Part shown: positions 25,356 to 62,024 of the stretch, piece after piece
Layout: each line of letters begins with the position of its first letter
Numbering within the stretch: position 1 is the stretch's first letter
NCBI GenBank assembly: GCA_964231325.1
Contig: CAXRIF010000002.1
Location: 287,138 to 351,137 of the forward strand
DNA length: 64,000 bases
From: Rickettsiales bacterium
GTDB lineage: Bacteria > Pseudomonadota > Alphaproteobacteria > Rickettsiales > SXRF01
Direction of reading: 5' to 3'
Translations under genes and position numbers: made by a program
Notes under the pieces: generated by a model
Told to the model about the DNA's origin: nothing
Database searches by the model: none
The model's input: only the letters and a program-made list of their open reading frames with translations

Positions 25356-26132
25356 ATGCGGTATCCATCATCCCAAAAAGGCTTCACCCTTATCGAGCTT
25401 TCGATCGTGCTCGTTATCATTGGCCTCATTTCTGGCGGCATCTTGTTCGGTCGTGATTTGATTAAAACAGCTGAACGCCGTGCCTTAATGCGTGATATTG
25501 AAAATTATCGCACTGCCATGCAAACCTTTAAACTTAAATATGGCTATATGCCCGGCGATATTCCGAACGCTACCCAAATCTGGGGGGAAAAACCAGGCGC
25601 AAATTGCGATAACCAAGTCGCAAGCGAAGGCTTGGAAACCTGTAATGGTGATGACAATGGACAGCTTACCTATGTACCCCCTACCTTGGGTAACTCCGAG
25701 GGCTGGTGCATATGGCAACACCTATCCAACGCTGAACTCATTGATGGTAGTTATACTTGTTCGGGCTACAGCAGCCCGACTTTCGGTAGCGGCGAAGGTA
25801 ATAGTGACTATCTGGCACGGTTTTACGCTGGCTATCAACCCGGCACTGACTTTTTCCCAACATATAATATGATAGGAAGAAATCTTTTGGTGGTACGAGG
25901 GCAAGGACTTAACTATCCAGCACTTAGAGCTGCTACCACCTATTATGTAGATTCCAAGGAAGATGACGGGTTTCCATTTATGGGCTCCGTGCAAACTGTT
26001 AATTATCTTGCCTTTCCTCCAGTTCATCATGTGCGGTTCGAAAATTGCACAACCGGCAGCGATACTGAAGCAAGATATAATATTCAAAATCAGGAAATTA
26101 ACTGTACACTCGGCACAAATTCCGGAATGTAA
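25356..26132 (+). CDS. Type IV pilin / pseudopilin-like protein, paralog 2 (258 aa)
   Basis: The prepilin signal is MRYPSSQKG|FTLIELSIVLVIIGLISGG. It shares the post-helix block (DLIK.AE.RA....Y..A..TF..KYG.MPGD) with the 10861..11733 pilin. Confidence 0.8.
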   Translation: MRYPSSQKGFTLIELSIVLVIIGLISGGILFGRDLIKTAERRALMRDIENYRTAMQTFKLKYGYMPGDIPNATQIWGEKPGANCDNQVASEGLETCNGDDNGQLTYVPPTLGNSEGWCIWQHLSNAELIDGSYTCSGYSSPTFGSGEGNSDYLARFYAGYQPGTDFFPTYNMIGRNLLVVRGQGLNYPALRAATTYYVDSKEDDGFPFMGSVQTVNYLAFPPVHHVRFENCTTGSDTEARYNIQNQEINCTLGTNSGM

Positions 26133-43978: not shown

Positions 43979-44145
43979 GAACTTCTCCTTTAATGCTTGG
44001 ATGAAAAGCAAGTCGCGTGCCGAAATTATGAGTGCGACATAAATGTCGCAAAATGATGATTTTAATGTTTTATTAATAAGATTTGTGGTGTAAATACATA
44101 AACTACGCTATATGTAGTGGGTTAGTGTTGTTAAAAGTGGGTTGG

Positions 44146-45759
44146 ATGGTGTCACCATTTATGTATAAAGCACGCGTTACGTGCTGCTTTGGGTTGTTGT
44201 GCTTGGTTTCCAGCACGACCCTGTCGACGCCACTTCACGCTGAAACCCTGACCTATCGAAACAACACCCATGACAGCGTAAAAAGACACTCTTCAGTACG
44301 CAAACGTTTTGCCGAAAACCCATATGAGCAACGGCGTCAAGAAATCGAAAAACAGGCACAGCTCCCCTCACCTGAACTGCTTAAAACTGCGCCCGCCAAT
44401 GTGGCTAAAATTGCTCCTAAGGAACTATTGAAAAAGCGCGACCCTATGCGCATCACCATCCCTAACATAAAGGCTATGGAGGGCACTGCACTGCCTTCTC
44501 CTGATTTACTTACAAGCAATGGTGCCGCTCCCGCCCCATCCACTGTCAAACAACCCAAACCTTTGCTTGCAAAAGATGATCGTCCATCACGTACGGTGGC
44601 GGCATTCAAACCCTCTACTTATGCACCCGGAAATATTGCGGCAGATGAACTTGCAGCACTTGCTCCTGCGGCAGGTGGAGATGATAACAACACTCCACTT
44701 ATAGCAATTCCAGCGGATACCCCTCCTGCAGCTGCAGCCCCAACCAAACCCTCCGCTGCTCCAGCTCCACCACCCCCTACAACAACGCAAACTGCTTCCG
44801 TAGCAGAAGCCACCAAGGAAGAGGTTTCTGTCGGCGAGGCAATTAATGATGTATTGAAAGCAGAAGAACCTTACGAAGCTTACAATGAAGCAACACAAAA
44901 ATTGCCACCCATCACCCCTCAATCCACTACTGCAAAATCATCAGAGCCAGAGCAAAGCCTATCACGTGAAAGCAAAATGATATTGAAGCGTATTCCTTCT
45001 AATATCGCTCAGGATAAGCCTAAGCCGAAAGGGCCTTTCAACATTGATCGCAGCAAAGATCTTGAAGAAGCATTTGCTATGGATGAACCGCCAGCATCTA
45101 AAACGAGCTCCGATGAAGAAACTGCTTCTGTATCACACGAGGCTATGGGTATCAAAATTGAGATGAAAAGGCGCACGATCAACCTCGATTACGAGCTTGA
45201 GAAAGCCTATGATGCTTTGGTTACCGGCCAACCCACTCTTGCCATCGAAATTTACAAAAATATTCTATCAAATGACCCAAAGAATAAAGGTGGTTTATTT
45301 GGCCTTGCAACCACTTATCACCGTCTTGGCCAGCTTGATGCGGCGCGCAGCTACTACAGCAAATTACTTTCTATTGATCCCAAGCATCGTGATGGGCTGA
45401 ACAACTTCCTGGTATTGCTTGCTGATGAAGCCCCACAAGAAGCTCTTGCACAAATGGAAGAGCTCTCGAAACGCAACCCTAACTTCAGCCCAATTCAAGC
45501 ACAAATGGCTGTGATTTATCAGCGTCTGGGTAACACAGAAATGGCCACAGAAAAAATGTTCAAGGCCGTGGCAATGTCTCCTGAAAATCTGGTTTACCGC
45601 TACAATCTAGCTATCATGCTGGATTCTCAGAAGAAATATGACGAAGCTGAGAGGCTATACAAACAGCTGGTTAAATCGGCTATGCGCGGGGAAGTTATTC
45701 CCGGAAATCTACAAAAAATTCAGCAAAGATTAACCTTTATTAGCTCTAATAGTCACTAA
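44146..45759 (+). CDS. Secreted TPR-repeat protein with a Pro/Ala-rich linker (537 aa)
   Basis: It has a signal peptide (STPLHA-ET), a central low-complexity tract (PPAAAAPTKPSAAPAPPPPTTT) and C-terminal TPR units (AIEIYKNILSNDPKN..., AARSYYSKLLSIDPKH..., AERLYKQLV). It sits immediately upstream of pilT. The TTG at 44083 is an alternative start. Confidence 0.7.
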   Translation: MVSPFMYKARVTCCFGLLCLVSSTTLSTPLHAETLTYRNNTHDSVKRHSSVRKRFAENPYEQRRQEIEKQAQLPSPELLKTAPANVAKIAPKELLKKRDPMRITIPNIKAMEGTALPSPDLLTSNGAAPAPSTVKQPKPLLAKDDRPSRTVAAFKPSTYAPGNIAADELAALAPAAGGDDNNTPLIAIPADTPPAAAAPTKPSAAPAPPPPTTTQTASVAEATKEEVSVGEAINDVLKAEEPYEAYNEATQKLPPITPQSTTAKSSEPEQSLSRESKMILKRIPSNIAQDKPKPKGPFNIDRSKDLEEAFAMDEPPASKTSSDEETASVSHEAMGIKIEMKRRTINLDYELEKAYDALVTGQPTLAIEIYKNILSNDPKNKGGLFGLATTYHRLGQLDAARSYYSKLLSIDPKHRDGLNNFLVLLADEAPQEALAQMEELSKRNPNFSPIQAQMAVIYQRLGNTEMATEKMFKAVAMSPENLVYRYNLAIMLDSQKKYDEAERLYKQLVKSAMRGEVIPGNLQKIQQRLTFISSNSH

Positions 45760-45798: not shown

Positions 45799-46923
45799 AT
45801 GGAAATCACTGACCTGCTCGTATTTACGCAAAAGAACAATGCGTCCGACTTACATTTGGCATCTACTAATCCGCCAATTTTGCGTATCCACGGCGAAATG
45901 ATGCCCTATAAATCACCTCCCCTTACTTCTGATGATATTAAACGCATGCTCTATTCCATTATGACAGAGCAGCAGCGCGCTGATTATGAGCGCGACTTTG
46001 AAATCGATTTTGCGATATCTTTTGGTGAGGAAATGCGTTTTCGTGTCAACGCATTTAATACATTGAATGGCCCCGCAGCTGTGTTGCGTACTATTCCAAA
46101 TCGCATTCTGTCTATGGAAGAACTAGGTACGCCTGAGGTGCTAAAAAAGCTATGTTATCTACATAAGGGACTGATTCTGGTAACAGGCCCTACCGGCTCT
46201 GGTAAGTCCACCACACTTGCCGCCATGATCGACCATATCAATACTAACGAAGCTAAGCACATTATCACTATTGAAGATCCGGTGGAGTTTGTACATCAAT
46301 CTAAAAAATCCCTGATCAATCAACGCGAAGTAGGCAAAGACACCAAGTCATTTGCCAAGGCACTCCGTTCCGCGTTGCGTGAGGATCCCGATGTGATTCT
46401 GGTGGGTGAGTTACGTGATATCGAAACCATTCAACTTGCGTTGACCGCAGCGGAAACAGGCCACTTGGTGATGGGCACGTTGCACACCAACTCAGCACCG
46501 AAGACTATTGACCGTATTATCGACGTATTCCCGGCAAATGACAAAGAAATGGTACGCGCCATGCTTTCCGTATCACTGGAGGCAGTAATCACCCAATCAC
46601 TTCTTAAACGCAAAGATGGTGGCCGTGTAGCTGCTCATGAAATCATGCTGGGAACTGGTGCAGTGCGCAACCTCGTGCGTGAAGGCAAAGTGCCACAGCT
46701 TTACTCACTCATTCAAATCGGCAGTAAAATTGGTATGAGAACCATGAAAGACAGCATCATGGCGCTATTTGAGGAAGGCATCATTACAGAGCAAACGGTG
46801 CGTGCAGCTATGGCTACCAGCACCTCGGAAGATGAAGGAGAAACCGAAACACCAAAAACGGATAACAAGGCAGGCAATAACAAGCGCACCAGCGGTGTAA
46901 GGCCTGTTCATAGCGGATTCTAG
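45799..46923 (+). CDS. pilT: Type IV pilus retraction ATPase PilT
   Basis: It has Walker A (GPTGSGKSTT), the Asp box, Walker B (ILVGELRD) and the His box (GHLVMGTLHTNSA). The PilT-typical N-terminus is LLVFTQKNNASDLHL. Confidence 0.95.
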   Translation: MEITDLLVFTQKNNASDLHLASTNPPILRIHGEMMPYKSPPLTSDDIKRMLYSIMTEQQRADYERDFEIDFAISFGEEMRFRVNAFNTLNGPAAVLRTIPNRILSMEELGTPEVLKKLCYLHKGLILVTGPTGSGKSTTLAAMIDHINTNEAKHIITIEDPVEFVHQSKKSLINQREVGKDTKSFAKALRSALREDPDVILVGELRDIETIQLALTAAETGHLVMGTLHTNSAPKTIDRIIDVFPANDKEMVRAMLSVSLEAVITQSLLKRKDGGRVAAHEIMLGTGAVRNLVREGKVPQLYSLIQIGSKIGMRTMKDSIMALFEEGIITEQTVRAAMATSTSEDEGETETPKTDNKAGNNKRTSGVRPVHSGF

Positions 46924-46927
46924 CAAC

Positions 46928-48061
46928 ATGGAAATGAACGCCAATAGTTTACTGCAAGGATTTACCGATAAGGATGCCACCGATCTTTATCTCACAGTAG
47001 GCGCCCCTCCTTCTTTGCGTTATGGTCACCGCATCGAACACATAGATAAAACTAAGCTTACCGAAGAGCATGTTAAAAGCTTTTTGAAAGAAATTGTGTC
47101 CTCCGATGTGTTGGAAGAGTTTGAATCTACCTTGGAATATAACACCGCGATCAACTGGCCGGAACTGGGGCGTTTTCGCGTTAATATGTTCCGCCAGCGT
47201 CAGAACACTGGTGTCGTATTACGTCGTATTCGCACTGATATCCCTTCTATTGAATCGCTAAATCTGCCGCCGCTTTATTCCGACCTTATCATGGAAAAAC
47301 GTGGTTTGATATTAGTGGTAGGCCCTACCGGTTCGGGGAAATCAACTTCACTGGCAGCCATGCTAGAGTATCGTAATAATAATGGTTCTGGCCATATTGT
47401 AACCATTGAAGATCCAGTAGAATTTGTTCTCGAACATAAGAACTGTATCATTACACAGCGTGATGTCGGTATTGATACTTATTCGTTCGGCATCGGCCTA
47501 AAAAACACTCTACGCCAGACACCCGACGTTATCGTGATTGGTGAGATCCGCGACAGAGAAACTATGGAACATGCCATTGTGTTTGCTGAAACCGGCCATC
47601 TATGCCTTGCTACATTGCATGCCAATAATGCTAACCAAGCCATTGAGCGTGTAATCAATTTCTTCCCTGAAGAGAAACATGCGCAAGTATTGTTAAATCT
47701 ATCACTTAACCTGAAGGCAATTCTCTCACAACGTCTACTTCCTAACCTGCAAGGTACACGTTCTATTGCACTAGAGATCATGCTCAATCAAGGCCTAGTG
47801 AAAAGCCTGATCCATGAGGGGCGCATTAAAGAACTTAAGGAATGTATTGAAAAAGGTCAGGATGTCGGCATGCAGAGTTTCGATCAGGCGTTGGTTGAGA
47901 TGTATGCTAATGGCGTTATCACCGAGGATGTCGCTCTGGCAGAATCTGATAACCCCGCCAACTTACGCCTTGCCATTAAACAGCATGATATGGGCAAAGG
48001 CCAAGGCCCGCTCCGTAGCCTCGCCCAAGATATGGGCATCATTAATAAGCAACAGTTCTAA
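46928..48061 (+). CDS. pilU: PilT-family ATPase, PilU-like
   Basis: This is a second PilT paralog (GPTGSGKSTS, IVIGEIRD, GHLCLATLHANNANQAIERV), starting 4 nt after the pilT stop. Confidence 0.85.
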   Translation: MEMNANSLLQGFTDKDATDLYLTVGAPPSLRYGHRIEHIDKTKLTEEHVKSFLKEIVSSDVLEEFESTLEYNTAINWPELGRFRVNMFRQRQNTGVVLRRIRTDIPSIESLNLPPLYSDLIMEKRGLILVVGPTGSGKSTSLAAMLEYRNNNGSGHIVTIEDPVEFVLEHKNCIITQRDVGIDTYSFGIGLKNTLRQTPDVIVIGEIRDRETMEHAIVFAETGHLCLATLHANNANQAIERVINFFPEEKHAQVLLNLSLNLKAILSQRLLPNLQGTRSIALEIMLNQGLVKSLIHEGRIKELKECIEKGQDVGMQSFDQALVEMYANGVITEDVALAESDNPANLRLAIKQHDMGKGQGPLRSLAQDMGIINKQQF

Positions 48062-48802
48062 CTACGCTGCTTTTTTCGCTTCATCTTTAGAAATAGAGTT
48101 CAGGAAGGCTTTCTCCAGCGAATCATCCTGATACTGTTTTTTGAATTCTGCTGGTGTGCCAATAAAGAATAATTTGCCTTCATGAATCACCCCAATACGA
48201 TCGCAAATTTCGTCAATGTCAGAGAGAATATGTGAGCTAAAGAATATCGTTTTATCGCGTGTGCGCGCATCTATGAGCATGTTTTTAAGCTTAATACGCG
48301 CGCTAGGGTCCAGCCCACTCATCGGTTCATCTAAAATAAGCAAACGCTCATCTATCATAAATGCACCAAGTAAACCCAACTTTTGTCCCATCCCTTTGGA
48401 ATATGAGCCTACCCGTGCATCAAGCACATTGGGATCCAAATCTAACGCTACCGCATTTTCTTTTGCCTGCTCTCGGTCCAGTTTCTTGCCGTAGTATGAT
48501 AGTGCCAAGGTCAGATATTCCATCCCCTTCAGGTAACGCGATGGCTGGAACTTTTCTGGCAAGTACGACAGATGTTTACGCGCACTAATACTAGTAGAGG
48601 CAATATCAAAAATTGATGTTTTCCCTTTATCGGCCTTCACCAAATCAAGGGCTATTTTAATCAAGGTAGTTTTTCCTGCACCGTTCAGGCCGATCAGTCC
48701 AAAAATCTCGCCCGGATTTAGCGAAAAGCTAATATCCTCAAGTACCTTACGTTCATCATATTTTTTGTGTACGCCATCTATAGATAATGGGGAATGACTC
48801 AT
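48062..48802 (-). CDS. ABC transporter ATP-binding protein (ABC-2/DrrA-like), with no adjacent permease
   Basis: It has Walker A (GLNGAGKTT), the signature motif (YSKGMGQKL) and Walker B (LLILDEP). It is the last gene of the pilB operon, and its stop abuts the pilU stop. Confidence 0.9.
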   Translation of the reverse strand: MSHSPLSIDGVHKKYDERKVLEDISFSLNPGEIFGLIGLNGAGKTTLIKIALDLVKADKGKTSIFDIASTSISARKHLSYLPEKFQPSRYLKGMEYLTLALSYYGKKLDREQAKENAVALDLDPNVLDARVGSYSKGMGQKLGLLGAFMIDERLLILDEPMSGLDPSARIKLKNMLIDARTRDKTIFFSSHILSDIDEICDRIGVIHEGKLFFIGTPAEFKKQYQDDSLEKAFLNSISKDEAKKAA

Positions 48803-48804
48803 AT

Positions 48805-49602
48805 TTACTCCTTTACCTCGTCACCTTCTCCTGAGCCCAACTTAGAATACGCGTCAATCAACCCGCCCAAACCTGTTCGAGATGGATCATCATCCTCTTG
48901 GTTAAAAAATGGATCTCCTGAATCTACAGGAGAAGGATCTAGAACCTCTGAAGGTGGTTCCAACGAAATATTGTGTGTATCAACAGTTACTGGCTGTACC
49001 TTACCTTCCAGTATATTCATTACATAAGAAGAAAAGGTCTGATTTACCCTAAGTGTAAAGATCACCTCTCCTCTGCGCTTATATACTTCAACGTTATCAT
49101 TTTCCATTTTCTGCCAGGTCTCATTTACCTTGTGCATAGAGACCGGTTTCCATTTCAGGCGAACCATATCCTCATTGATCTCCATCACACTCAGATCGGT
49201 ATTCTCCATTGGGCTGCTTTGTGTCAATTTCTGCCCATTAACCCATATAATCCAGTTATCTTCCGCATGGTAAACGATAGATTCCAAAAAGAATTGTGGG
49301 TATTTATAATAACGGTTTGTTTCCTGCGCTTTTCTGATACCCGTAAGACGATTGAGAAAATCTTCTTCATCAAAACCACCGTCATCTCTGCGGCCCGACG
49401 AATTTTTCTTATATATATTCATCGCATAATTAATATCTGCCGTTTCTTCTGGTGTAAAAAACAGGCTTCCTATCTTTATTGGCTCATTATTGTTTTCAGG
49501 TAGCGTTTCACTATTTGCAGACGGTGCGCTCTGCGCATTAGCAGCACCAGACGTCAGCATCAAACAAGCACAAAGCAGAGCTATATGGCGAACAACTACC
49601 AT
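48805..49602 (-). CDS. Secreted protein (265 aa), PilP/GspC-HR-like by pattern
   Basis: It has a signal peptide (GAANA-QS). The block LESIVYHAEDNWIIWVNGQKL...DLSVMEINEDMVRLKW resembles the beta-domain pattern of PilP/GspC. The C-terminus is acidic. Confidence 0.45.
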   Translation of the reverse strand: MVVVRHIALLCACLMLTSGAANAQSAPSANSETLPENNNEPIKIGSLFFTPEETADINYAMNIYKKNSSGRRDDGGFDEEDFLNRLTGIRKAQETNRYYKYPQFFLESIVYHAEDNWIIWVNGQKLTQSSPMENTDLSVMEINEDMVRLKWKPVSMHKVNETWQKMENDNVEVYKRRGEVIFTLRVNQTFSSYVMNILEGKVQPVTVDTHNISLEPPSEVLDPSPVDSGDPFFNQEDDDPSRTGLGGLIDAYSKLGSGEGDEVKE

Positions 49603-50285
49603 CTGCGGCGCCTTCCTCTGCGTTTACGTGACTGTTCCTGACGTTTAGCCTCCTCTGGATCAAGTGAGTTTATACCATACCACTTAAAATTGATGGTACT
49701 CTCAACCAGGTTATAACTTCCATTCTGGGTAATAGAACGTAACGCTTCATCTGTTAGGCCACTTACACGTTCTAGCTGTATTCCAGTAAAGCTTACCGCT
49801 CCAGGATAGTTTTCCTGTATATCCCGCATAAAGCGATATACATCTTCATCATTCGCTGCCTGAAAGCGCAGAGTGGCATCTGTAGTCATCAACACACTGG
49901 TTTTACGCTTGTATTTTGCATCCTCATGTGCAGTCGGTTCGGCAATATTTAATTGGGTCTCTCCACCAACAAGATTATGTGTGTATTCGTATTCTCTATT
50001 TAAGTGATCCGCTATTCCCATTGTGTGGGAAAGCATATCCTCTTCATTAAGGCGCATCACTTTTTCATATAGATCAATATCATTTTGTACACGTATATAT
50101 TTTTCACGAAGCCCATTTGTTTCGTTAGTAACGGCACTTACCTGTGCCTCCATATTTCTTTTTCTTGAAATATACTCATCTTGCATGGTGCTAATAAAAT
50201 ACGTACCGCCACCTATTACAGCCAGAATAGCTCCTGCAAAACTACCCTCGAAAATCAGCTGTCTTTTTAACTGCTGAAACTTCAT
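49596..50285 (-). CDS. Bitopic membrane protein (229 aa), PilO-like by architecture
   Basis: It has a short cytoplasmic N-terminus, one TM helix (FAGAILAVIGGGTYFI), a predicted coiled coil and an alpha/beta domain (ATLRFQAANDEDVYRFMRDIQENYPGAVSF). Its start overlaps the upstream stop (ATGA). Confidence 0.45.
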   Translation of the reverse strand: MKFQQLKRQLIFEGSFAGAILAVIGGGTYFISTMQDEYISRKRNMEAQVSAVTNETNGLREKYIRVQNDIDLYEKVMRLNEEDMLSHTMGIADHLNREYEYTHNLVGGETQLNIAEPTAHEDAKYKRKTSVLMTTDATLRFQAANDEDVYRFMRDIQENYPGAVSFTGIQLERVSGLTDEALRSITQNGSYNLVESTINFKWYGINSLDPEEAKRQEQSRKRRGRRRRW

Positions 50286-52057
50286 GGCGCATTCCCCTCT
50301 GAAGGTGAACTTACAGGCTCTTCTGGTGCTGGCACTAGCGGCCCATAAATCATCAGCGTTTCTTCAACCGGCTCTGCATTCGTAATGTCCCCTGGCATCG
50401 GAATAGCCTCATTAGCTGAACTAATGCTTAACTGTCTTCCCGCTCTTTCAATATCTGCTAACGATTTTTCTGCCTCTACTTCGTAACCCGGCAACTTTCT
50501 GCGGAAATCACCCATGATACGATTCAACACAAATCTACGAGCCTTACTATCAGATACAACGGCAGGGAGCTCTACAACCAACGTTACCGTTACCCATTTA
50601 TTTTTTGAGTCACCTGCTTTTGCCGTTTGCATACGTTGTAGAGCCACAGGATCAATATTTCTTGGTAAGCGCATCCTGCCATCTTGCTTATCAACCTGTA
50701 TTGAGATGGATTTCAATGTCATTGGCGGCACAATCAATGGCTTAATCTTTTCGATCAACGGTAATAGCGTATCATTTTCTTCCTGAAGATATTTATATAG
50801 GTCAATCAGATCGGTTGCTTTTTCTACATCCAGATTTTTGCGTGCTATTTCGTTTTTGAGTGCCGTGAGTGTATTTTGCTCGGTCTTTTTTTGTCGTTCG
50901 AGCCGCTCTAAATCACCGCTGATACCCATAATATCAGCCCCCATGTATCCCGAATAGCCAATCATCCCAACCGTCCCTACTACCGTTACCAAACGAAGCA
51001 AAACCTTCAGGTTAAATGCTGTATCTATTTTTTTGTATTCCGGAACAGCAAGGGTAAGGCGGTGCCTTTTTGCACAACCAATAATAGAGGCAAGCACCAC
51101 ATCACCAAACTGATCGGTGGCTTGCGTCGCTCCCTCTATATTGAAAAATTGTGCCATTTCAAATGGCGTGAATACCTGCGTACTACTTGCAGAAAATTTT
51201 TGCGTATCGATGGCATCCTTAATGCCTGCCGAGGCCAGAATATAGATATCCAGCCCTGCTTGCGGGTTATAAGAAAGGCGCTTCATATATTCAATAGTCG
51301 AGAGTATTTCCTGCTCAATACTGCCCGTTATTACTTCGGTATTTGTTTCGCCAAGCGGTTGCGCCAGACGGGTAAATACGATTTTGCCTTTATGCAGTAT
51401 AACCTGGCGGAACCCTCCCACTTTGTTATGACTAACAAAGAATTTCCATTCTGCACCCGTACCCTCTTTAGGCACGCCAATAGCTTTTTCCAGCGTTTTG
51501 AGAAATATTTCAGTTTCAGCTGAAATAAGATGAATGCCCTTAAAGCGATTGGGCAGCTCCATGACAAAGTCTAACCACACCGATAGTTGCGGGCTGCGCT
51601 CCAGCGCAATCATCATGAAGTTCCAGTCCTTGCGGCCTGTTTTTTCACGCCCCAGTATCATCGCCCCTTTAATATCCTCTGGGCCAAAATCACGATCCAA
51701 CCTGCGTTTCACCAGCTTGCCAACGCTCATCGCCGAAACAGGTGGCAAGGTTTGCTGCACGTAGGATTGATCCATACTATCGATCACTAAAAGCACTGGG
51801 GCTTTAGGGTCTTTTTCAATCGTCTGCTTTAATTCTTCAAGGTTTTGTTCGCTGGCATCCGGACAGAACTGGCGACTGAGCACCTGATTATCCTTGATAT
51901 AAACAAGAATTGCACCTTCATCGCCAATGAAAAAGACAAAACGCGTCCCCTTCGCTGCCCTGAATACCTTACCTTTAGGGGGCACGCGCTCAGCGGTGTT
52001 CTTGGTTTCCGCTTCCTTTTTATCTTTCTTAAGGCGTTTTTTAAAACTAAAGGCCAT
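50282..52057 (-). CDS. PilM-PilN fusion-like / GspL-like protein (591 aa)
   Basis: The ATG at 52057 has a GGAG Shine-Dalgarno. A cytoplasmic domain of about 370 aa (FVFFIGDEGAILVYIKDN..., actin/PilM-like pattern) is followed by one TM helix (LLRLVTVVGTVGMIGYSGYM), a coiled coil and a periplasmic domain. Confidence 0.5.
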   Translation of the reverse strand: MAFSFKKRLKKDKKEAETKNTAERVPPKGKVFRAAKGTRFVFFIGDEGAILVYIKDNQVLSRQFCPDASEQNLEELKQTIEKDPKAPVLLVIDSMDQSYVQQTLPPVSAMSVGKLVKRRLDRDFGPEDIKGAMILGREKTGRKDWNFMMIALERSPQLSVWLDFVMELPNRFKGIHLISAETEIFLKTLEKAIGVPKEGTGAEWKFFVSHNKVGGFRQVILHKGKIVFTRLAQPLGETNTEVITGSIEQEILSTIEYMKRLSYNPQAGLDIYILASAGIKDAIDTQKFSASSTQVFTPFEMAQFFNIEGATQATDQFGDVVLASIIGCAKRHRLTLAVPEYKKIDTAFNLKVLLRLVTVVGTVGMIGYSGYMGADIMGISGDLERLERQKKTEQNTLTALKNEIARKNLDVEKATDLIDLYKYLQEENDTLLPLIEKIKPLIVPPMTLKSISIQVDKQDGRMRLPRNIDPVALQRMQTAKAGDSKNKWVTVTLVVELPAVVSDSKARRFVLNRIMGDFRRKLPGYEVEAEKSLADIERAGRQLSISSANEAIPMPGDITNAEPVEETLMIYGPLVPAPEEPVSSPSEGNAP

Positions 52058-52282
52058 TTTACTCCACATCCGGATACGCATATGTTGTAGCTGTATTTGC
52101 AATGATTTTCAACGAATATTGCAGAAAAATCATCAACATAATCCTTACCGAAGCCGTTACCTGTGATTCGCTAGCCTGTAGCAAATGCGAAGCGTTATTG
52201 AGAACCACCACGCAAGCGTACTGATCGGTACGCGCGTAGTGGAAGCGCAAATAACGCAAGTAAGTTCCTCAGGATAGTAGAA

Positions 52283-53485
52283 TTAGAATTTCATTTTGCT
52301 GAAGGATTCGTAAAGCGGCCCGAATACTGCGGCAATCACCCAGAAAATAATAATCCCCATCACCACAGTAAGTGCAGGCTGGATCATACCCACCATCGAA
52401 TCCACCGCATCATTGACTTCACGGTTATAGAAAAAGTTAATGTTTTCGAGTGCGTCAGACATATTACCGCTATCTTCGCCCACCTTAAACATGCGGATTA
52501 CCAGATTGGGGAAATGATTGGAAATTCGCAATGCAGCAGTTAACGAGCTTCCCTCTGTCACATTCGTTTTCACCAGCTCAATCGATTCTTTTAGCACGCG
52601 ATTGGAAACCACACCTTTAGCGGCCTCTAGTGAATCCAGAATGTCGATACCGCTATTGAACATCACCGAGAAAAAGTGCGTGAAGCGCGCCATATCAATC
52701 TTGCGGATAACGGGTCCAATTACCGGCATCTTCAACATAAACGCGTCCATTTTATAGGCAAAGCTTTCTGAGAACCGGTACGCCACTAATATTAAAACGA
52801 CGAACATGACAGGCGTGCCCAAAATGTAATACCAGTAATTCTCAAAAGCATATGAAACAGCGATCAATGCACGTGTATGCATGGGTATTTCAAACCCTTG
52901 CGACATAATAAAGTCGACCAATTTTGGTACTACCGCAATCATAAGCACAGTTACTACGATGGAAATAACCACAATGAGCGCGATAGGGTAGCGTGTTGCT
53001 TTTTTTACCTTACGGCGAATCTCGGCAGACCACTTCAAATGCTCTGCAAGATGCGTAAAAGACTCTGAAAGGTTACCTGTTTTTTCACCTGCAGCGACCA
53101 ACCCCACAAATACATCGTTGAACACTTTGGGGTAATTAGCCAGCGCCTGCGAAAGCATATTACCATTCTTCACTGACTCGTAAACGCCAGTCAGAACGTC
53201 ACGTAATTTCGGTGATTCGCTGGAATCACGCACATCCGCCAACGCATCATGCAGTGGTACACCCGCCCTATCGAGCTGTTCCAAATGCATACATAATACG
53301 ATCATATCTTTGAGCTTAATACTGCCAAAACGTGATGAACGTTTGGCAACCACCTCGCGTGCATCAATGAGATCCAGACCTAGTTCCTTGAGGCGGGATT
53401 CAAGATCAAGCTCGTTATCCGCTACCACAACGCCGCGCATCTTGCGCCCTGCAGCATTCATCGCGGTATAGTTATATGCGGGCAT
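52283..53485 (-). CDS. pilC: Type IV pilus platform protein PilC (GspF family)
   Basis: A 400-aa ORF with duplicated GspF domains and 3 TM helices. Its start overlaps the pilB stop (TAATG). Confidence 0.9.
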   Translation of the reverse strand: MPAYNYTAMNAAGRKMRGVVVADNELDLESRLKELGLDLIDAREVVAKRSSRFGSIKLKDMIVLCMHLEQLDRAGVPLHDALADVRDSSESPKLRDVLTGVYESVKNGNMLSQALANYPKVFNDVFVGLVAAGEKTGNLSESFTHLAEHLKWSAEIRRKVKKATRYPIALIVVISIVVTVLMIAVVPKLVDFIMSQGFEIPMHTRALIAVSYAFENYWYYILGTPVMFVVLILVAYRFSESFAYKMDAFMLKMPVIGPVIRKIDMARFTHFFSVMFNSGIDILDSLEAAKGVVSNRVLKESIELVKTNVTEGSSLTAALRISNHFPNLVIRMFKVGEDSGNMSDALENINFFYNREVNDAVDSMVGMIQPALTVVMGIIIFWVIAAVFGPLYESFSKMKF

Positions 53486-55302
53486 TACAATCGATCCGTA
53501 AGGTCAATAGTGTTAATGAGCTCTTCTAACGTAATCTCCCCGGCCAATACTTTCTCAATACCGTCTTGTTGCATGGTCACAAAACCGTTCTCAAGCGCAT
53601 GCTCCATCATTTGCTTACGTGTAGCATGGGTAGAGATTAGCTCTTCCATAGTGCGGTCAATGCGCAGAATCTCAAGAATAGCAACACGCCCTTTAACACC
53701 TTTACCACCGCATTCCTCGCAACCAACCTTATCATAGATTGTAGGGGGCTTAGCGGCATCGACTCCAAGAATTTTGCACTCTTCTTCTGTAGCAGTTCGT
53801 GATTTGCGACAGGATTTACACAACTTTCGCGCCAAACGCTGCGCCAAACAACCAATCAACGAGGTAGCAAGTAGGTGACCCGGCACGCCAATATCACCTA
53901 AACGCGGAATTGCACCAAGTGCATCATTCGTGTGGAGTGTGGTAAATACCTGGTGACCGGTAAGTGCCGCACGCACGGCCATCAACGCCGTGTCCTCGTC
54001 ACGCACCTCACCAATGAAGATGATGTCGGGATCCTGACGCATCAACGATTTAATACCGTTGAGGAAGTCCATACCACTACCTTCACGCACACTACTCTGG
54101 CGAATAAGTGGCAGTTGATATTCCACCGGATCTTCCAACGTCATGATGTTAGTTTCAATATCATTGATGTAGCTCAACACCGAATAAAGCGTGGTGGTCT
54201 TACCCGAACCAGTAGGACCCGTTACGATGATAATCCCTTCCGGTCGCTTGAGCAGTTTTTTAAGGACATCACTATTATGTTCGGAGAATCCAAGTTTTTC
54301 GAGAGGTACAAGTGACTTGGTTTTATCCAAAAGACGCATCACGATGTTCTCGCCATGCACGGTGGGTTGCGTTGCCACACGAAAATCAACTTCACGACCA
54401 AGCACGTTGTATGAAATACGACCATCTTGCGGGTTGCGCGTTTCTGCGATGTTCATGCTCGACATAATTTTGATACGTACCACCATCGCCGACCAATAAT
54501 CACGGTGGAACGAACGTACCTGCAACATTTGCCCATCAATACGGTAGCGCAAACGAAGGAAAGTACCTTCCGGTTCAAAGTGAATATCCGATGCGCCCTG
54601 CTTGATCGCATCTACCAAAAGCGCATTCACCAAACGTACTGTCGGGTTTACATAGCCTTCCTGACGGCCATCCAGCTTTGTATTTTCACGGATACCGGTT
54701 TCAATTTCTTTTAAAATACCATCAACAGAAATTTCATAGTCATAATACTGATCGACCATTTCCAGAATTTCTGATTCTGTACAATAGATCGGTACAATTT
54801 TGGTATTACGTGGCACATGGCGACGCACCTGATCGATCGCCAATACGTTGTATACGTCGGCCATAGCCAATTTCAGCACATCATTTTCATACGAAACCGG
54901 AATCACCTTATGGCGCGTGGCCATTTCCTTGGGTATAAGCTGAATGATTGATGCATCCAGCATGGTCGCTTTCGGATCAAACTTCTCAGTACCGGATGAT
55001 TCAGCCAATACCTCACCCAGCGCGGACTCCGTAATGAACCCCATATCCACCAGAATGGCACCGAATAGCTTTTTTGATGTTTTTTGTTCGGTCAGTACGA
55101 TCTGCAACTGGTCATCAGAAATAAGCCCCAGATGCACCAGCTTCTCACCAAGACGCATAGGTGGCTTGCCCTTACTTTCACCTTCCGCAGCGGGTGGTGG
55201 TGTTTGAGTTGAGTCTATCGCAGCTGCAGCAGCCTCTGCTGGGATTTCTTCTACTTTCCCTTCAGCGTCTTTTGCGGATTTATTGTTTTTTTCAGCAGGC
55301 AT
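53485..55302 (-). CDS. pilB: Type IV pilus assembly ATPase PilB (GspE family)
   Basis: It has an N-terminal T2SSE_N/MshEN-like domain (LGEKLVHLGLISDDQLQIVLTEQK), Walker A (GPTGSGKTTT) and Walker B (IFIGEVRD). The tetracysteine motif is CKSC...CEEC. Confidence 0.9.
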   Translation of the reverse strand: MPAEKNNKSAKDAEGKVEEIPAEAAAAAIDSTQTPPPAAEGESKGKPPMRLGEKLVHLGLISDDQLQIVLTEQKTSKKLFGAILVDMGFITESALGEVLAESSGTEKFDPKATMLDASIIQLIPKEMATRHKVIPVSYENDVLKLAMADVYNVLAIDQVRRHVPRNTKIVPIYCTESEILEMVDQYYDYEISVDGILKEIETGIRENTKLDGRQEGYVNPTVRLVNALLVDAIKQGASDIHFEPEGTFLRLRYRIDGQMLQVRSFHRDYWSAMVVRIKIMSSMNIAETRNPQDGRISYNVLGREVDFRVATQPTVHGENIVMRLLDKTKSLVPLEKLGFSEHNSDVLKKLLKRPEGIIIVTGPTGSGKTTTLYSVLSYINDIETNIMTLEDPVEYQLPLIRQSSVREGSGMDFLNGIKSLMRQDPDIIFIGEVRDEDTALMAVRAALTGHQVFTTLHTNDALGAIPRLGDIGVPGHLLATSLIGCLAQRLARKLCKSCRKSRTATEEECKILGVDAAKPPTIYDKVGCEECGGKGVKGRVAILEILRIDRTMEELISTHATRKQMMEHALENGFVTMQQDGIEKVLAGEITLEELINTIDLTDRL

Positions 55303-55506: not shown

Positions 55507-56307
55507 CTACCCAACAAATGCCTTTTCCACCACATACTCCGCGGGAGAAGCATTAGAACCTTCCGTCAGCCCATAAGATTCAATTAATGTTTTCATATCA
55601 TTATTGAATGCTACAGAACCACACACCATCGCGCGATCTATCGCAGGATCAAATGCAGGCACTCCCAGCTCTTCAAACATCTGCCCGCCCTTAATAAGAT
55701 CAGTAATGCGCCCTACCCGATGATAGTCATCGCGGGTTACACTTTCATAATAGTGCAGTTTACCCGCGCTCATTTCCCCTAAATATTCGTGGTTCTTCGT
55801 TTGTTCTACTACCGATTTGCTGTAATCCAGCTCTGCTACATTACGGCACGTGTGGGTTACAATCACCTGTTCAAATTTATCATACGTATCAAGATCGCGG
55901 ATAATGCTGGCAAATGGGGCAAAGCCGGTGCCAGTCGAAAACAAATAAAGCCGCCTACCCGGAATAAGTGCATCATGCACCAGCGTCCCTGTCGGTTTTT
56001 TACCCAGCAACACATGATCGCCGGGCTGAATTTTTTGAAGCTGTGAGGTCAGGCGACCATCGGAAACTTTAATAGAGAAAAATTCCAGCTCATCATCCCA
56101 TGCCGGGCTTGCCATAGAGTATGCACGCAAAACATTTTTCCCCTCTATTTCCAAACCCAACATGATGAACTCACCAGAGCGAAAACGAAACGATTGTGGC
56201 CGTTCGAGCGAAAACGAAAATAACGTATCCGTCCAATGTTTAACCTTAAGCACTTTTTGAAGCGTTGGTGCATTCGGATTTACTGGTTTTTCTGCCGTAC
56301 TATTCAT
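55507..56307 (-). CDS. fpr: Ferredoxin-NADP+ reductase (bacterial Fpr type)
   Basis: The FAD and NAD motifs are RAYSMAS, LGKKPTGTL and LFSTGTGFAPFASI, with a C-terminal YVVEKAFVG. The start is ATG at 56307 (TTG at 56322 is possible). Confidence 0.9.
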   Translation of the reverse strand: MNSTAEKPVNPNAPTLQKVLKVKHWTDTLFSFSLERPQSFRFRSGEFIMLGLEIEGKNVLRAYSMASPAWDDELEFFSIKVSDGRLTSQLQKIQPGDHVLLGKKPTGTLVHDALIPGRRLYLFSTGTGFAPFASIIRDLDTYDKFEQVIVTHTCRNVAELDYSKSVVEQTKNHEYLGEMSAGKLHYYESVTRDDYHRVGRITDLIKGGQMFEELGVPAFDPAIDRAMVCGSVAFNNDMKTLIESYGLTEGSNASPAEYVVEKAFVG

Positions 56308-56349
56308 AACTACCTTGTTCAATCAGTTTAGTGGTTCAATAAATATTTC

Positions 56350-56913
56350 TCAGTTCACAGGGCTGGTAAATAACAACCCATCTGCATGTTTTTTTCTTCC
56401 TTTATCGCTGTATAATGCCCATGCAGCGTAGCGTGCAGCTATTTCCAACAAGGCTTTATGTTGCGCTTCATTTTCCAGCCATCCTGCAATGACCTTGGCA
56501 AAAGAAAACTCTATCACTTCCAGATTATCGCCAGGAATAGGAAGCATCGAAAGCAGCGCATCACCATCTACGCGCGCGGCCGCTTCAAAAGATAGGGCGT
56601 TGGATGCGCGTGGCTGTATAAATTGCCATTTACACACATAAAACGGAACTAATGACGCATGTCGCTTCGCCAGCTTTTCCATGGCTTCACTGTCATTTCT
56701 GAGTCCTGTAATGAACGCTTCGATATATGGCACGAGCGCATTCATTAATGCCTCATCACTAGCCGTCGATGATTCAGTTCGCGCGGCAACCAAGCGTTCA
56801 TGCAGCCCACTATCTAATCGCTTTAGCTCTTCAACAAAAATACTGTCGAGTTCTAAAAAGCCATTTTGTTCACGATGTGGATCGAATGTTATATTGTAAC
56901 CAAGACTTACCAA
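56350..56913 (-). CDS. Hypothetical protein (187 aa), possibly a stand-alone DUF3400-like domain (weak recollection)
   Basis: The TTG start overlaps the yjdF stop. The N-terminus YNITFDPHREQNGFLELDSIFVEEL resembles the N-termini of large Fe-S/FAD oxidoreductases as I recall them. This is not verified. Confidence 0.45.
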   Translation of the reverse strand: MVSLGYNITFDPHREQNGFLELDSIFVEELKRLDSGLHERLVAARTESSTASDEALMNALVPYIEAFITGLRNDSEAMEKLAKRHASLVPFYVCKWQFIQPRASNALSFEAAARVDGDALLSMLPIPGDNLEVIEFSFAKVIAGWLENEAQHKALLEIAARYAAWALYSDKGRKKHADGLLFTSPVN

Positions 56914-57518
56914 TGCACACCTCGCAATTTTGCTAATGCTTTATCATGGGTTTTTCCTAACATTAGCAATGCAAGGATGGCGCCTATCAAAGCCAGGAAC
57001 ATATCCTTTTGTGTATCCCATACATCACCTTGCGTGCCCAAAAAGGCAACAGCGCCCTCTCCTGTCATATCGCCCACTATCCACTCAATGAGTTCGTAGG
57101 CAGCGCTAATGCCAAGACATCCCAACACCACAATTACAAACAACCATTTGCCAGCCTGCAATGGAGAGGTACGAAGCAATAGCTCGCGGGCTATCATTGC
57201 GGGCACAAATCCTTGTGCAAAATGCCCCAGACGATCGTAATGATTGCGCGATAGCTCATACGTATCGCGCAGCCAATTAAACAGAGGCACCTCCGCATAA
57301 GTATAATGCGCTCCCACCGCTAATATGACGCAGTGGAAAGCAATCAAACCATAAAGAAGTGGTGTAAGCGCAAATACATGACGCGTTGTAAATAGCACAA
57401 TGCCATATATCAATACCGGTGCAATTTCCAACCACCAGGTAAATCGATCTGCCGGATCAATAGCTGACCAGAGCGATACTGCAGCCACGATGATGAAAAG
57501 ATATAACGGGCGGATCAT
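56907..57518 (-). CDS. yjdF: YjdF-family membrane protein (DUF2238)
   Basis: The blocks [10 protein letters not shown]...[19 protein letters not shown]...[26 protein letters not shown] are typical of DUF2238. Its start overlaps the cysNC stop. Confidence 0.8.
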
Positions 57519-59449
57519 ATACCGCTCCCCTCCACATCGCGCACCTGCCCTCCCTTATCTTCCATCATTAGATTATGCGCTGGTTGCACAAGCTGATCTT
57601 CAACATAAACCAGCAGTTTTTTGACTGACTCCTCAATGGTTTCGGCTTCAGTATCGAGCACAACATCAGGGTTCTCAGGTTCTTCGTAAGGCGCACTAAT
57701 GCCTGTAAAGTCTGGAATTTCTCCCTTGCGTGCTTTGGCATATAGTCCCTTGGTGTCACGCTTTTCACACGCCTCTACCGTTGCTTTCACATATACTGTG
57801 TGAAAGCTTTGTGGCAACAAAGCGCGCGCACGTTTGCGGTCTGCGACATAGGGTGAAATGAATGAGGTAATTACAATCACTCCTGCCTGCGCAAAGAGTG
57901 ATGCGACTTCAGCAACACGGCGAATATTTTCGCTCCGATCTTCCGGAGAAAACCCGAGATCGCGTGCCAAGCCCTGGCGAATATTATCACCATCCAACAT
58001 ATACACCTGATAGCCTTTATCAAACAAACGGCGATGCAGTTGTTTTGCAACAGTAGATTTTCCGGAACCAGAAAGGCCAGTGAGCCACAAGATGCCGCCA
58101 AAATGACCGTTCTGCAGTGCGCGCTGTTCACTAGAAACACCTGTATCTACGTCGAATATATTTTCCGAAACGGCTTTACTGCTATGCGTATTCCGCTGAT
58201 CTAAGAATCCATCCATACTGATAATGCCGCCACCAGCAATATCGTAATCCTGTTGGATAACAAACCGAGCAAGCGCACGCTGATCACCATAATGATCCAC
58301 TGCCGTCAACCCACGCAAACGTATCACCACCTCGGCCACATTATTGCGCTCCACCTGCTCAGCCTCGCCATGTGTAAGCGAGCTAGCATCTACCACATGC
58401 TCAATAGATTTTATTTCACCATATGCTTCCGATGTGCCGAGTTTAATTTTATAGCGTTTACCTGTTGCCAGCGGCTCTCTGCTCAACCAAAAAAGTCGTG
58501 CACGAAATTGCGTGGTAAGCATAGGCGCATCTTCTACATGACTTGCAACATGTCCCCGCTCAATAAAGATTTGGTCATCCAACGTGATCCCTATGGACTG
58601 ACCTGCACTGGCTTGCTGTGGCGCGTTCTCACCCGGCCATGATTCAATACTGGAAACTTTTGCCTGTACGTTACTGGGAGAAAACAACAACGTATCGCCG
58701 ACACGAATTATTCCACTTTCAACACGACCCGCCAATATCCGTCTATCATCAAATTTATACACATCTTGAATTAAAAAACGCAGCGGCAACTCTTCATCTG
58801 ATTGCGCGGGCGCGAAATGATCGAGGGCTGAAAGCACTGACTCACCCTTGTACCACGGCGTATTATCAGATGTTGCCGCCACATTATCACCATCGCGCGC
58901 AGAGATAGGAATAAAACAGGTTGGAGTGATATCGAGCGTTTTTAGATAGGCGCGATATTCTTTTTCTATATTAGCAAAGACCTGTTCATCAAACCCTATC
59001 GCATCCATCTTATTAACGATCACCGCCACCTGTCGAACACCCAGCAAATGCAGTAGATAGCCATGGCGTTTACTTTGTTCACGTATGCCTTCTTTTGCAT
59101 CAATAATGACGAGCGCCGCATCGGCCTGTGCTGCACCGGTAATCATGTTTTTTAGGAATTCTTTGTGGCCTGGTGCATCAATGATGACGATATCGCGCTT
59201 AGGCGTTTTGAGCCATATTTGTGTAGTATCAATGGTGATTCCCTGATCACGTTCGGCCTGCAGCGCATCCAGCAAAAATGACCACTCAAACGGCATCCCG
59301 CGCTTTTTACAGCTTTGTTGAATAGCCTCCATTTTACCATCCGGCAATGAATCCGTATCGTGCAACAAGCGGCCAACCAATGTTGATTTTCCATGATCAA
59401 CATGCCCGACAATCACAAGATTTAGTGGGGTAGAGTCTTTATAAGTCAT
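57515..59449 (-). CDS. cysNC: Bifunctional sulfate adenylyltransferase subunit 1 / adenylylsulfate kinase
   Basis: The N-terminal GTPase has the motifs [15 protein letters not shown] and NKMD. The C-terminal APS kinase has [20 protein letters not shown] and ITSFISPY. Confidence 0.95.
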
Positions 59450-59943
59450 TGTGCCTTCAGTGAACGTTTAAGGTTTTCAATATCCTGTTTCATTAGCGTA
59501 GCCACTTGTTTACTTGTGTCTCGATCACAAGGCTCTCCTTTTAGAGATGCCGCTAATGTTTGTTGTGCTACCCCATGCAGCACGCCCGAATATGCCGTTT
59601 GCTTATCATTTTTCATATGCATGCGTAATTGCTGCAACATAAGCAGGTAACGCTCCTGCCAGTCCACTCCACACCATTGTGCGAGCCCAGATTCTCCGCC
59701 TTTATTGATAAGGTAATGCGCCTGCTGCTTAGAAATCGGCACCGTGGTGCGCTCCTTTTCGTCCGCGGGCTGAACGGGATCGCCCTTCGAGTCGATCGCC
59801 TTTCCCCAAAAATGCTTGAGGGTAAGCTGCATCATTTCTGCCTTCTCCACATCACTAAAAAGCTCATCCGCTTTTGCCGAAGGCGACAAAACCAGCGCTA
59901 CTAACATCGTCAGAATAATTGGCTTCACATTATATCCTTTCAT
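59446..59943 (-). CDS. Hypothetical periplasmic protein (165 aa) inserted between cysD and cysNC
   Basis: It has a signal peptide (LSPSAKA-DE). It is coupled on both sides (TAATG with cysD, ATGA with cysNC). No family is recognised. Confidence 0.6.
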
Positions 59944-60776
59944 TACATATATCCATCTGCGCGCAAACGCTCGAAAGAAGACTCATCCTCGTCTGCACCC
60001 ATAGGTCGGCCAGATCGTTCAGAGGTTTTTGTGATTTCAAGCTCTTTGATAATGGCTTCAATAGTAGTGGCGTCGCTTTCTACTGGCCAGGTAATTCCTC
60101 TTTCCCCCAAGGAGCGAAAACGCATCATTTTCCCGCCAAAATCACGCCCTTCAAACTGGGTATATTCTTTGGCAAAATAAAGCGGCACAATAGGTATATT
60201 CTCGCGCTGTATGTAGCGCCAAATATCAATTTCTGTCCAATGCAGCAATGGATGAATACGCAAAGAGGTACCCGGCGCATAATCTGTTTTATACTGCCCC
60301 CAAAACTCCGGTGGCTGGTCTTTTACGTCCCATCCCCCTGTTTCACCTCGCGGCGAAAAAATACGCTCCTTCGCGCGGGTGGCCTCTTCATCACGACGAA
60401 TACCGGCAATCACTCCGGTAAACCCATGCTCATCGAGCACCTGTTTGAGCCCTAATGTTTTACGTGACGCGACACGAGCAGCAGGAGGCAGTGATTCATC
60501 TGTTTCTTCCAACGGCGGACAAATGGGCGAAAGCAAATCCAGCCCCCATTCACTCACATATTTATCGCGGAATGCATATACCTCTTCCATCTCCAACTCT
60601 GTATCACAATGGATAAGCGGGAAGGGCACATGGCCAAAGAAAGCCTTGCGCGCAAGGTGGATCATTACGTTGGAATCCTTGCCAAAAGACCACAGCATGG
60701 CGAGCTTTCCTACCGCATGAAATGCTTCGCGGAACACATAAATAGATTGCGATTCCAGTCGATCAAGATGGTTCAT
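59943..60776 (-). CDS. cysD: Sulfate adenylyltransferase subunit 2
   Basis: It shows the PAPS-reductase-fold ATP sulfurylase small subunit pattern (LESQSIYVFRE, MLWSFGKDS, RIHPLLHWTEIDIWRYI, SLGERGITWP). Confidence 0.9.
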   Translation of the reverse strand: MNHLDRLESQSIYVFREAFHAVGKLAMLWSFGKDSNVMIHLARKAFFGHVPFPLIHCDTELEMEEVYAFRDKYVSEWGLDLLSPICPPLEETDESLPPAARVASRKTLGLKQVLDEHGFTGVIAGIRRDEEATRAKERIFSPRGETGGWDVKDQPPEFWGQYKTDYAPGTSLRIHPLLHWTEIDIWRYIQRENIPIVPLYFAKEYTQFEGRDFGGKMMRFRSLGERGITWPVESDATTIEAIIKELEITKTSERSGRPMGADEDESSFERLRADGYM

Positions 60777-62022: not shown

Positions 62023-62024
62023 TT

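Follow-up and report, generated by a model that had tools for sequence, protein, structure and literature searches.

Surveys of early-branching Rickettsiales report type IV pili from matches to PilB, PilC, PilT, pilins and secretins, and the inner-membrane complex of the PilMNOP type has gone unrecognised in them. Which genes might supply this complex is the question raised by a 64,000-nucleotide stretch from an uncultured Rickettsiales bacterium (assembly GCA_964231325.1, contig CAXRIF010000002.1, positions 287,138 to 351,137; the whole stretch is called the window here). Among its pilus genes lies an open reading frame (ORF) of 591 codons, MN591, for which a fused PilM-PilN protein with the topology of GspL, a component of type II secretion systems (T2SS), was predicted from the letters alone. 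MN591 proved to be a genuine and conserved protein that annotation has so far missed, a component of the type IV pilus machinery of uncultured Alphaproteobacteria. With the products of the two genes that follow it, p229 and p265, it is an obvious candidate for the unrecognised complex.

In the gene table for environmental Rickettsiales of Schön et al. 2022 (PMC9352585, supplementary file 18), PilB, PilC, PilD, PilT/PilU and many pilins are widespread, as is a secretin family, 90% of whose members KEGG labels mshL. Only 3 of about 41 columns contain the canonical PilM/PilN and PilQ families, and an unannotated family with marginal PilN matches is widespread (PMC9352585). This pattern is consistent with MN591, p229 and p265 being the missing alignment complex. 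In the window, no ORF that was scanned had a Pfam PilM or PilN match. Naming the three proteins would complete the parts list of a pilus proposed for attachment, in a lineage used to study the origin of host association.

The MN591 chain and its cytoplasmic domain

The minus strand of positions 50282-52057 translates into 591 uninterrupted codons starting at the ATG at 52057, with a Shine-Dalgarno sequence, GGAG, 5 nucleotides 5' of it. The plus-strand reading of the same interval contains many stops and was rejected. An in-frame TTG at 52102 would add 15 residues; the ATG was preferred because homologues start at its position with the consensus 'MAL...K'. All the strings quoted in the original prediction were found in the translation: FVFFIGDEGAILVYIKDN at residues 40-57, LLRLVTVVGTVGMIGYSGYM at 353-372, the heptad-like segment LERLERQKKTEQNTLTALKNEIARKNLDVEKATDL at 384-418 and the Pro-rich C-terminal tail at 576-591. 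The predicted layout stood as well, with a cytoplasmic part of about 352 amino acids, not about 370, and about 219 amino acids beyond the membrane, coiled coil included. A protein identical to MN591 is already in public collections (P0001).

The conservation of the gene was followed in a sample of one genome per GTDB species, which gave 100 stretches with an MN591 relative. All of the 80 loci kept belong to uncultured metagenome-assembled genomes (MAGs), whose labels are Alphaproteobacteria, Rickettsiales, Pseudomonadota or Azospirillaceae. Homologues of 545-650 amino acids number more than 331, and none of them has a name or a Pfam domain. When 1.84 billion cluster representatives (clusters at 50% identity) were searched with a profile, 1,504 family clusters were returned at E<=1e-3, 520 of them at E<=1e-30, and nearly all of the best 150 are 500-690 amino acids long.

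An ORF of this kind might arise from an assembly error or frameshift that joins two genes, but nothing beyond a few short database homologues (318-392 amino acids) speaks for this, and the comparative data refuted it; MN591 is almost certainly not such an artefact. In every one of the 80 loci, which stem from independent assemblies, the gene is a single ORF of 513-629 codons unless cut by a contig end, and one continuous helix is predicted across the junction by AlphaFold2. Two short entries that resemble split forms were inspected, and both are contig-end fragments. One runs off its contig, and the other (P0245, 347 amino acids) owes a false TAA stop to the Illumina adapter AGATCGGAAG that ends its contig. 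The fusion is therefore genuine, one chain being found in every complete orthologue across the 80 loci and about 1,500 clusters. The adapter lies at positions 1598-1616 of locus L084 (ENA contig k141_140946), where it makes P0245 mimic an orthologue with the N-terminal domain only.

The AlphaFold2 model of MN591, built from a 60-sequence alignment, had a mean predicted local distance difference test (pLDDT) score of 82, and residues of about 36-335 scored above 90. In the model, this N-terminal domain consists of two beta-beta-beta-alpha units and an inserted alpha/beta subdomain resembling 1C. A Foldseek search of the PDB with the model gave 55 matches at E<=1e-3, and all of the 50 listed have the actin-like ASKHA fold. 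The best match was PilM of Pseudomonas aeruginosa (5eou, E 3e-11, target-normalised TM-score 0.60), followed by the actin-fold protein BT_3980, FtsA, PilM of Thermus (2ych, 0.60) and the cytoplasmic domains of PulL, GspL and EpsL. The target-normalised TM-scores of the GspL-type domains (4pht_Y, 1yf5, 1w97 and 5tkw) were 0.49-0.65, with 0.65 for 4pht_Y. By its modelled structure, the N-terminal domain has the actin-like fold of PilM, cytoplasmic GspL and FtsA, indicating that the actin-like domain proposed originally was correctly recognised. At about 300 amino acids, it is intermediate between PilM (about 350) and cytoplasmic GspL (about 235), and the structural scores favour neither.

This domain is very strongly conserved, and 43 positions are invariant among the 60 sequences. 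The motif G45-D46-E47-G48 is at least 90% conserved, and H210-x-K212-V213-x-G215 is conserved as well. Read as motifs only, GDEG (45-48) and H210-N-K-V-G-G-F-R-Q stand where the phosphate-1 and phosphate-2 loops of ASKHA proteins are expected; a clear GGG-type adenosine motif was not seen, and the 'ILASAGIK' found there is not conserved. The domain may bind a nucleotide.

The FtsA structures are also strong fold matches, and no sequence-level tie joins MN591 to pilus proteins. Together with a permease-less ABC ATPase conserved in the operon, these points would suit a membrane-anchored actin-like protein unrelated to pili, FtsA-like or an envelope scaffold, possibly acting with that ATPase. Such a protein is highly improbable here. 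PilM is the top structural match, the MN591 gene invariably lies between the platform gene and the PilO-like and PilP-like genes, and it has a PilN/PilO-like paralogous partner in p229. FtsA, moreover, ends in a C-terminal amphipathic helix and not in a transmembrane helix with a periplasmic domain.

The membrane and periplasmic half

Residues 353-372 were the only hydrophobic span of MN591 in a Kyte-Doolittle scan. Since the lysines K342, K343 and K351 lie on the N-terminal, cytoplasmic side of this span, the orientation would be N-in/C-out. The AlphaFold2 model places the span within one continuous helix of residues 339-407, and the model and the scan together support the predicted bitopic topology, in which a coiled coil and an alpha/beta domain lie on the periplasmic side. 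The C-terminal 212 residues were modelled separately (m30ce1e7173ab) with a pLDDT of 79. The order of elements in this model is alpha-beta-(insert)-beta-alpha-beta-(insert)-beta. It matches, with two inserts, the twofold alpha-beta-beta order that a review describes for PilN, PilO, periplasmic GspL and GspM. A Foldseek search of the PDB with the separately modelled residues gave no significant match.

The next gene, whose start overlaps the MN591 stop, adjoins MN591 in about 70 loci. Its product, p229, is also bitopic with a coiled coil. In hhalign, the C-terminal half of MN591 (residues 336-591) matched the p229 family over 148 columns (Prob 91.7%, P 7.7e-7; controls P around 0.06), although this score includes the transmembrane helix and coiled coil, which are able to inflate profile scores. 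Part of the signal may be compositional, because the globular part alone gave P 0.0012. The alignment is colinear, transmembrane helix on transmembrane helix and coiled coil on coiled coil, and the patterns 'DLIDLY' and '...sD..f...l.d.k..f.GY' are common to both proteins. The profile comparison indicates that p229 is a paralogue of the membrane and periplasmic half of MN591. No Pfam match was found for p229, and its family profile met only coiled-coil or FN3-like noise among the PDB sequences.

Comparisons of the two MN591 halves, p229 and p265 with single Aeromonas proteins of the mannose-sensitive haemagglutinin (MSH) pilus and with GspL, GspM, GspC and GspB of Escherichia coli gave weak hhalign matches only. 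The best were p229 with the Pfam-verified PilN-like protein of the Aeromonas MSH locus (P 8e-4) and the C-terminal half of MN591 with the transmembrane and coiled-coil region of E. coli GspL (P 0.0026). This half also had a weak, colinear match to the PilN part of P0360, a fused PilM_2-PilN protein (P 0.0011). A PilN-type identity of the C-terminal half is likely, to judge from the element order and the profile similarity to p229, but it is not demonstrated: the periplasmic domain had neither a Foldseek match nor a match to the PilN or GspL_C models, and the PilN assignment of the original prediction is left at this strength.

The pilus cluster and the type of machine

The operon runs on the minus strand in the order ATPase, platform protein, MN591, p229, p265 and ABC ATPase, and the genes for a TPR protein, PilT and PilU converge on it from the plus strand, PilU being the one that meets the assembly operon. 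The synteny of the operon and of TPR-PilT-PilU was kept across the 80 loci with minor rearrangements, and in it MN591 stands directly after the ATPase and platform genes and next to PilT and PilU. MN591 probably serves a retractile type IV pilus machine as its assembly (alignment) subunit in the inner membrane; the carriers are uncultured Alphaproteobacteria, for the most part MAGs with the label Rickettsiales.

If PilM-PilN-PilO-PilP and GspL-GspM-GspC are taken as a guide, the actin-like domains of MN591 would form a cytoplasmic ring that docks the hexameric ATPases (the MshEN-type extension ATPase and PilT/PilU) and the platform protein. The transmembrane helix and coiled coil would heterodimerise with p229 to give a periplasmic ring, which p265 may bridge to a secretin encoded elsewhere in the genome, and the TPR protein could be a pilotin or an MshN analogue. 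The fusion would make the coupling of PilM to PilN permanent and 1:1, as in GspL and Vibrio-type MshI, because both halves are one polypeptide, whereas the classic PilM is a separate protein held only via the N-terminal peptide of PilN.

Several results weigh against this assignment, in addition to the caution given above for the p229 score. Pfam gave no match, whether to PilM, PilN, GspL, FtsA or another model, for MN591 (E<=0.01) or 60 family members (E<=10), and NCBIfam gave none for MN591. The family profile met only a chance syntaxin match among the PDB sequences. In hhalign, the MN591 family (60 sequences) matched the MshI family (20 sequences, fused and split) with a Prob of 0.3%, and the N-terminal domain gave nothing against E. 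coli GspL (P 0.28). BLAST searches of all ORFs with Aeromonas MshL and E. coli GspD as queries, together with Pfam scans, found no secretin in the window or, in the 80 loci, up to 10 kb from the cluster. MN591 is annotated as hypothetical everywhere because the family is too divergent for current sequence models, and it was not filed as a member of the PilM, PilN, GspL or MshI families because it has no detectable sequence relationship to MshI or to the Pfam, NCBIfam and PDB sequence models. MN591 is a new, divergent and unannotated family with the design of PilM-PilN, GspL and MshI, and would work like those.

The original prediction had also seen T2SS-like architecture in the locus. According to reviews, GspL corresponds to PilM plus PilN. 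Like GspL (EpsL, PulL, XcpY), MN591 joins an actin-like cytoplasmic domain, a single transmembrane helix and a periplasmic domain in one chain, and it is followed by a bitopic, paralogue-like partner, p229, as GspL is by GspM. These likenesses, the matches of the cytoplasmic domain to GspL, EpsL and PulL structures and the NCBIfam scores of the platform protein (GspF 319.6, PilC 250 bits, both below cut-offs) would suit a GspL orthologue in a T2SS cluster with PilT/PilU as mere neighbours. This is very unlikely, for MN591 matched neither the T2SSL (PF05134) nor the GspL_C (PF12693) model. The N-terminus of the ATPase matched only MshEN-type N-termini (MshE, Geoalkalibacter PilB) and not the N1E type of GspE, neither the window nor the surroundings of the cluster in the 80 loci contained genes for GspC, GspD or the pseudopilins GspG-K, and the pilins, at 258 and 290 amino acids, far exceed pseudopilins. 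The synteny of PilT, PilU and the TPR protein with the operon in most of the 80 loci is also unlike chance adjacency. The locus does not look like a T2SS: its machine is a retractile pilus system, to be placed somewhere among type IVa pili (T4aP), MSH and T2SS, whose only T2SS feature is the fused protein.

The assembly ATPase scored almost alike with the NCBIfam models for GspE (511.9 bits) and PilB (507.3 bits), both below cut-offs, and reached 61.6 bits (cut-off 38) with the MshE-related cyclic di-GMP motif. The identity of its core was 47% to XcpR, 43.5% to Aeromonas MshE, 41% to E. coli GspE, 40.6% to Neisseria PilF and 39.5% to Geoalkalibacter PilB, references that are as distant from one another as from this ATPase. 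Typing by pairwise core identity was rejected, as values of 39.5-47% to GspE, MshE and PilB references alike give no discrimination.

An unusual combination was claimed originally, a fusion of T2SS type beside retraction ATPases. The fused protein does stand beside PilT and PilU, but the rarity was overstated, since PilM-PilN fusions exist outside T2SS. A search from the Aeromonas MshI (287 amino acids, the split form) found a fused Vibrio MshI of 455 amino acids (P0358), a protein of 480 amino acids that is 92% identical to it and has a Pfam PilN domain (P0357), and a 504-amino-acid protein with both PilM_2 and PilN. The fusion of PilM and PilN is not peculiar to T2SS. No description of such a fusion in Alphaproteobacteria or Rickettsiales was found in the literature.

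MshI is fused in Vibrio and split into MshI and a PilN-like protein in Aeromonas, and MN591 has the architecture of the fused form, in which cytoplasmic domain, transmembrane helix, coiled coil and PilN domain fit into 455-480 amino acids. Beside MshI, an msh locus comprises MshJ, MshK, MshL (secretin), MshM (AAA), MshN (TPR), MshE and MshG; the MN591 cluster has an MshEN-type ATPase (38% identical to Aeromonas MshE over 514 amino acids, the RLGxxL...Q motif included), a platform protein, PilO-like and PilP-like genes and a TPR protein that aligns with MshN. MN591 might therefore be a highly diverged MshI in an MSH-type system that kept or recruited PilT/PilU; the mshL label of the secretin family in environmental Rickettsiales would agree with this, as would the presence of an accessory ATPase, albeit of the ABC type where MSH has the AAA protein MshM. 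This alternative is unlikely, though less so than a T2SS. No homology to MshI was detectable in the profile comparison given above, and MN591 is 110-135 amino acids longer. The ATPase core is about equally far from XcpR, MshE, GspE, PilF and PilB, and the MshEN domain is found in PilB too (Geoalkalibacter). MSH, furthermore, is a single locus with secretin and MshM genes, neither of which lies in or near the MN591 cluster, whereas this cluster has PilT and PilU tightly linked, and an ABC ATPase.

The T4aP proteins PilM and PilN resemble MN591 in other respects. PilM structures (5EOU, 2YCH) are the best matches of its N-terminal domain, its C-terminal half is predicted to have a transmembrane helix, a coiled coil and alpha-beta-beta twice, and PilT/PilU retraction ATPases and pilin signals of type IVa style belong to its system. 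In contrast to PilM and PilN, MN591 lacks PilM_2 (PF11104) and PilN (PF05137) matches, its periplasmic domain has two inserts and no detectable fold match, and its gene follows those for the ATPase and the platform protein instead of heading a pilMNOPQ operon; a secretin gene is not adjacent. BfpC and TcpR of type IVb systems were compared from the literature. They are bitopic with a cytoplasmic domain resembling PilM and GspL without sequence similarity, and reviews describe the N-terminal domain of BfpC, PilM and cytoplasmic GspL as sharing a fold without sequence similarity; the type IVb context, however, differs in its pilins and ATPases.

MN591 adds another very divergent lineage with fused PilM-like and PilN-like halves and bears on whether such a fusion had a single origin, on the branch leading to T2SS and MSH, or more than one. 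The general view of type IV filament machines is left unchanged by these findings, which would not surprise specialists in the field. Tentatively, the cluster may represent a distinct, so far undelimited type IV filament subtype that is widespread in early-branching and environmental Rickettsiales and other uncultured Alphaproteobacteria. Such a subtype would combine the GspL/MshI-like fusion, an MshEN ATPase, an MshL-like secretin encoded elsewhere, PilT/PilU, scattered large pilins and a dedicated ABC ATPase. If so, MN591, p229 and p265 would be a whole alignment complex missed by annotation so far, and MN591 could record the state from which GspL/MshI-type fusions originated, or an independent fusion event.

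Accessory and neighbouring genes

The coordinates of MN591, its domains and the other pilus genes of the window are given in Table 1.

Table 1. Features of MN591 and of pilus-related genes in the window
Feature	Coordinates	Strand	Evidence
MN591 (591-aa fused assembly protein)	50282..52057	minus	whole ORF incl. stop codon
MN591 N-terminal tail, residues 1-35, Lys-rich	51953..52057	minus	pLDDT 51-62; consensus 'MALxxxK...KxKxxK'
MN591 predicted actin-like (ASKHA) domain, PilM/GspL/FtsA type, residues 36-335	51053..51952	minus	AlphaFold2 + Foldseek
MN591 single transmembrane helix LLRLVTVVGTVGMIGYSGYM, residues 353-372	50942..50999	minus	sole hydrophobic span
MN591 membrane-proximal periplasmic coiled coil, residues 373-426	50780..50941	minus	predicted helices 339-407, 411-426
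MN591 periplasmic alpha/beta domain, residues 427-575	50333..50779	minus	model pLDDT 79, no significant PDB fold match
p229: bitopic, coiled coil, candidate PilO/GspM equivalent	49596..50285	minus	start overlaps MN591 stop
Assembly ATPase (PilB/GspE/MshE family), MshEN c-di-GMP-binding N-terminal domain	53485..55302	minus	Pfam T2SSE 7e-124, MshEN 7e-16
Platform protein (GspF/PilC family)	52283..53485	minus	Pfam T2SSF 5e-55
p265: secreted periplasmic, signal peptide; candidate secretin connector, PilP/GspC-HR/GspB class	48805..49602	minus	
ABC-type ATPase, last gene of the operon	48062..48802	minus	Pfam ABC_tran 9e-22
Exported/membrane-anchored protein, long Pro/Ala-rich linker, C-terminal TPR; candidate PilF/PilW pilotin or MshN analogue	44083..45759	plus	
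PilT retraction ATPase	45799..46923	plus	TIGR01420 480 bits, cut-off 319
PilU-type second retraction ATPase	46928..48061	plus	TIGR01420 422 bits, above cut-off
Type IV pilin gene, 258 aa, GFTLIELSIVLVIIG class III signal	25356..26132	plus	motif scan; Pfam N_methyl 9e-8
Second large type IV pilin gene, 290 aa, same N-terminal motif	10861..11733	minus	motif scan

The position of p265, which has an N-terminal hydrophobic signal, is conserved across the loci. Five of 36 orthologues had a weak Pfam T2SSB (GspB) match (best E 0.0026), and the family profile gave no match to PDB sequences beyond coiled-coil or FN3-like noise. The conserved core of p265 reads W117...W151-K-P...TLRPNQTF...EGKV. GspB partners the ATPase GspA in secretin assembly; the ATPase that stands after p265 is of a different class, ABC.

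This ABC ATPase has an intact Walker A motif, signature and Walker B motif, and no permease gene adjoins it. Most of the 80 loci retain it in the cluster, and it is a candidate accessory factor. In some loci (e.g. L054, L061, L063 and L074), its gene lies upstream of that for the assembly ATPase and is read from the opposite strand. The comparable place in MSH and some T2SS systems is taken by an AAA ATPase (MshM/GspA). The only precedent found for an ABC ATPase in a pilus cluster is the PilGHI set of Myxococcus, which is ABC-like and poorly understood (PMC6060248).

The gene of the TPR protein is conserved upstream of pilT. Pfam TPR matches cover residues 372-535, the PilW model (TIGR02521) gave 56 bits, below its cut-off, and the identity to Aeromonas MshN was 25% over 201 amino acids.

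The two pilins have a nearly identical N-terminal GFTLIELSIVLVIIGLI; their genes are 14 kb from each other, and both are distant from the assembly cluster. For related genomes, Schön et al. 2022 (PMC9352585) list as many as 57 pilin-family genes in a single genome.

The platform gene and MN591 are separated by a gap of 225 nucleotides (52058-52282); most related loci have them adjoining or overlapping. The gap could hold an internal promoter or regulatory element; a simple promoter scan of the interval found nothing.

Directly upstream of the pilus operon, positions 55507-63761 (minus strand) encode sulfate assimilation, with sulfite reductase, sirohaem synthase, two PAPS-reductase-family genes and a CysN/CysC fusion. 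This pathway has been reported to be ancestral among environmental Rickettsiales and to have been lost by the host-associated members, and the cluster is consistent with a free-living source organism.

At 9341-9760 (plus strand), an isolated gene flanked by prfC (release factor RF3) and the gene of a PagL-like lipid A deacylase matched Pfam GTA_holin_3TM (E 2e-22), a holin type linked to the release of gene-transfer agents. The RpoD homologue at 35812-38205 (plus strand, 797 amino acids) carries an N-terminal extension of about 180 residues before region 1.1, with a weak Pfam match of low-complexity type.

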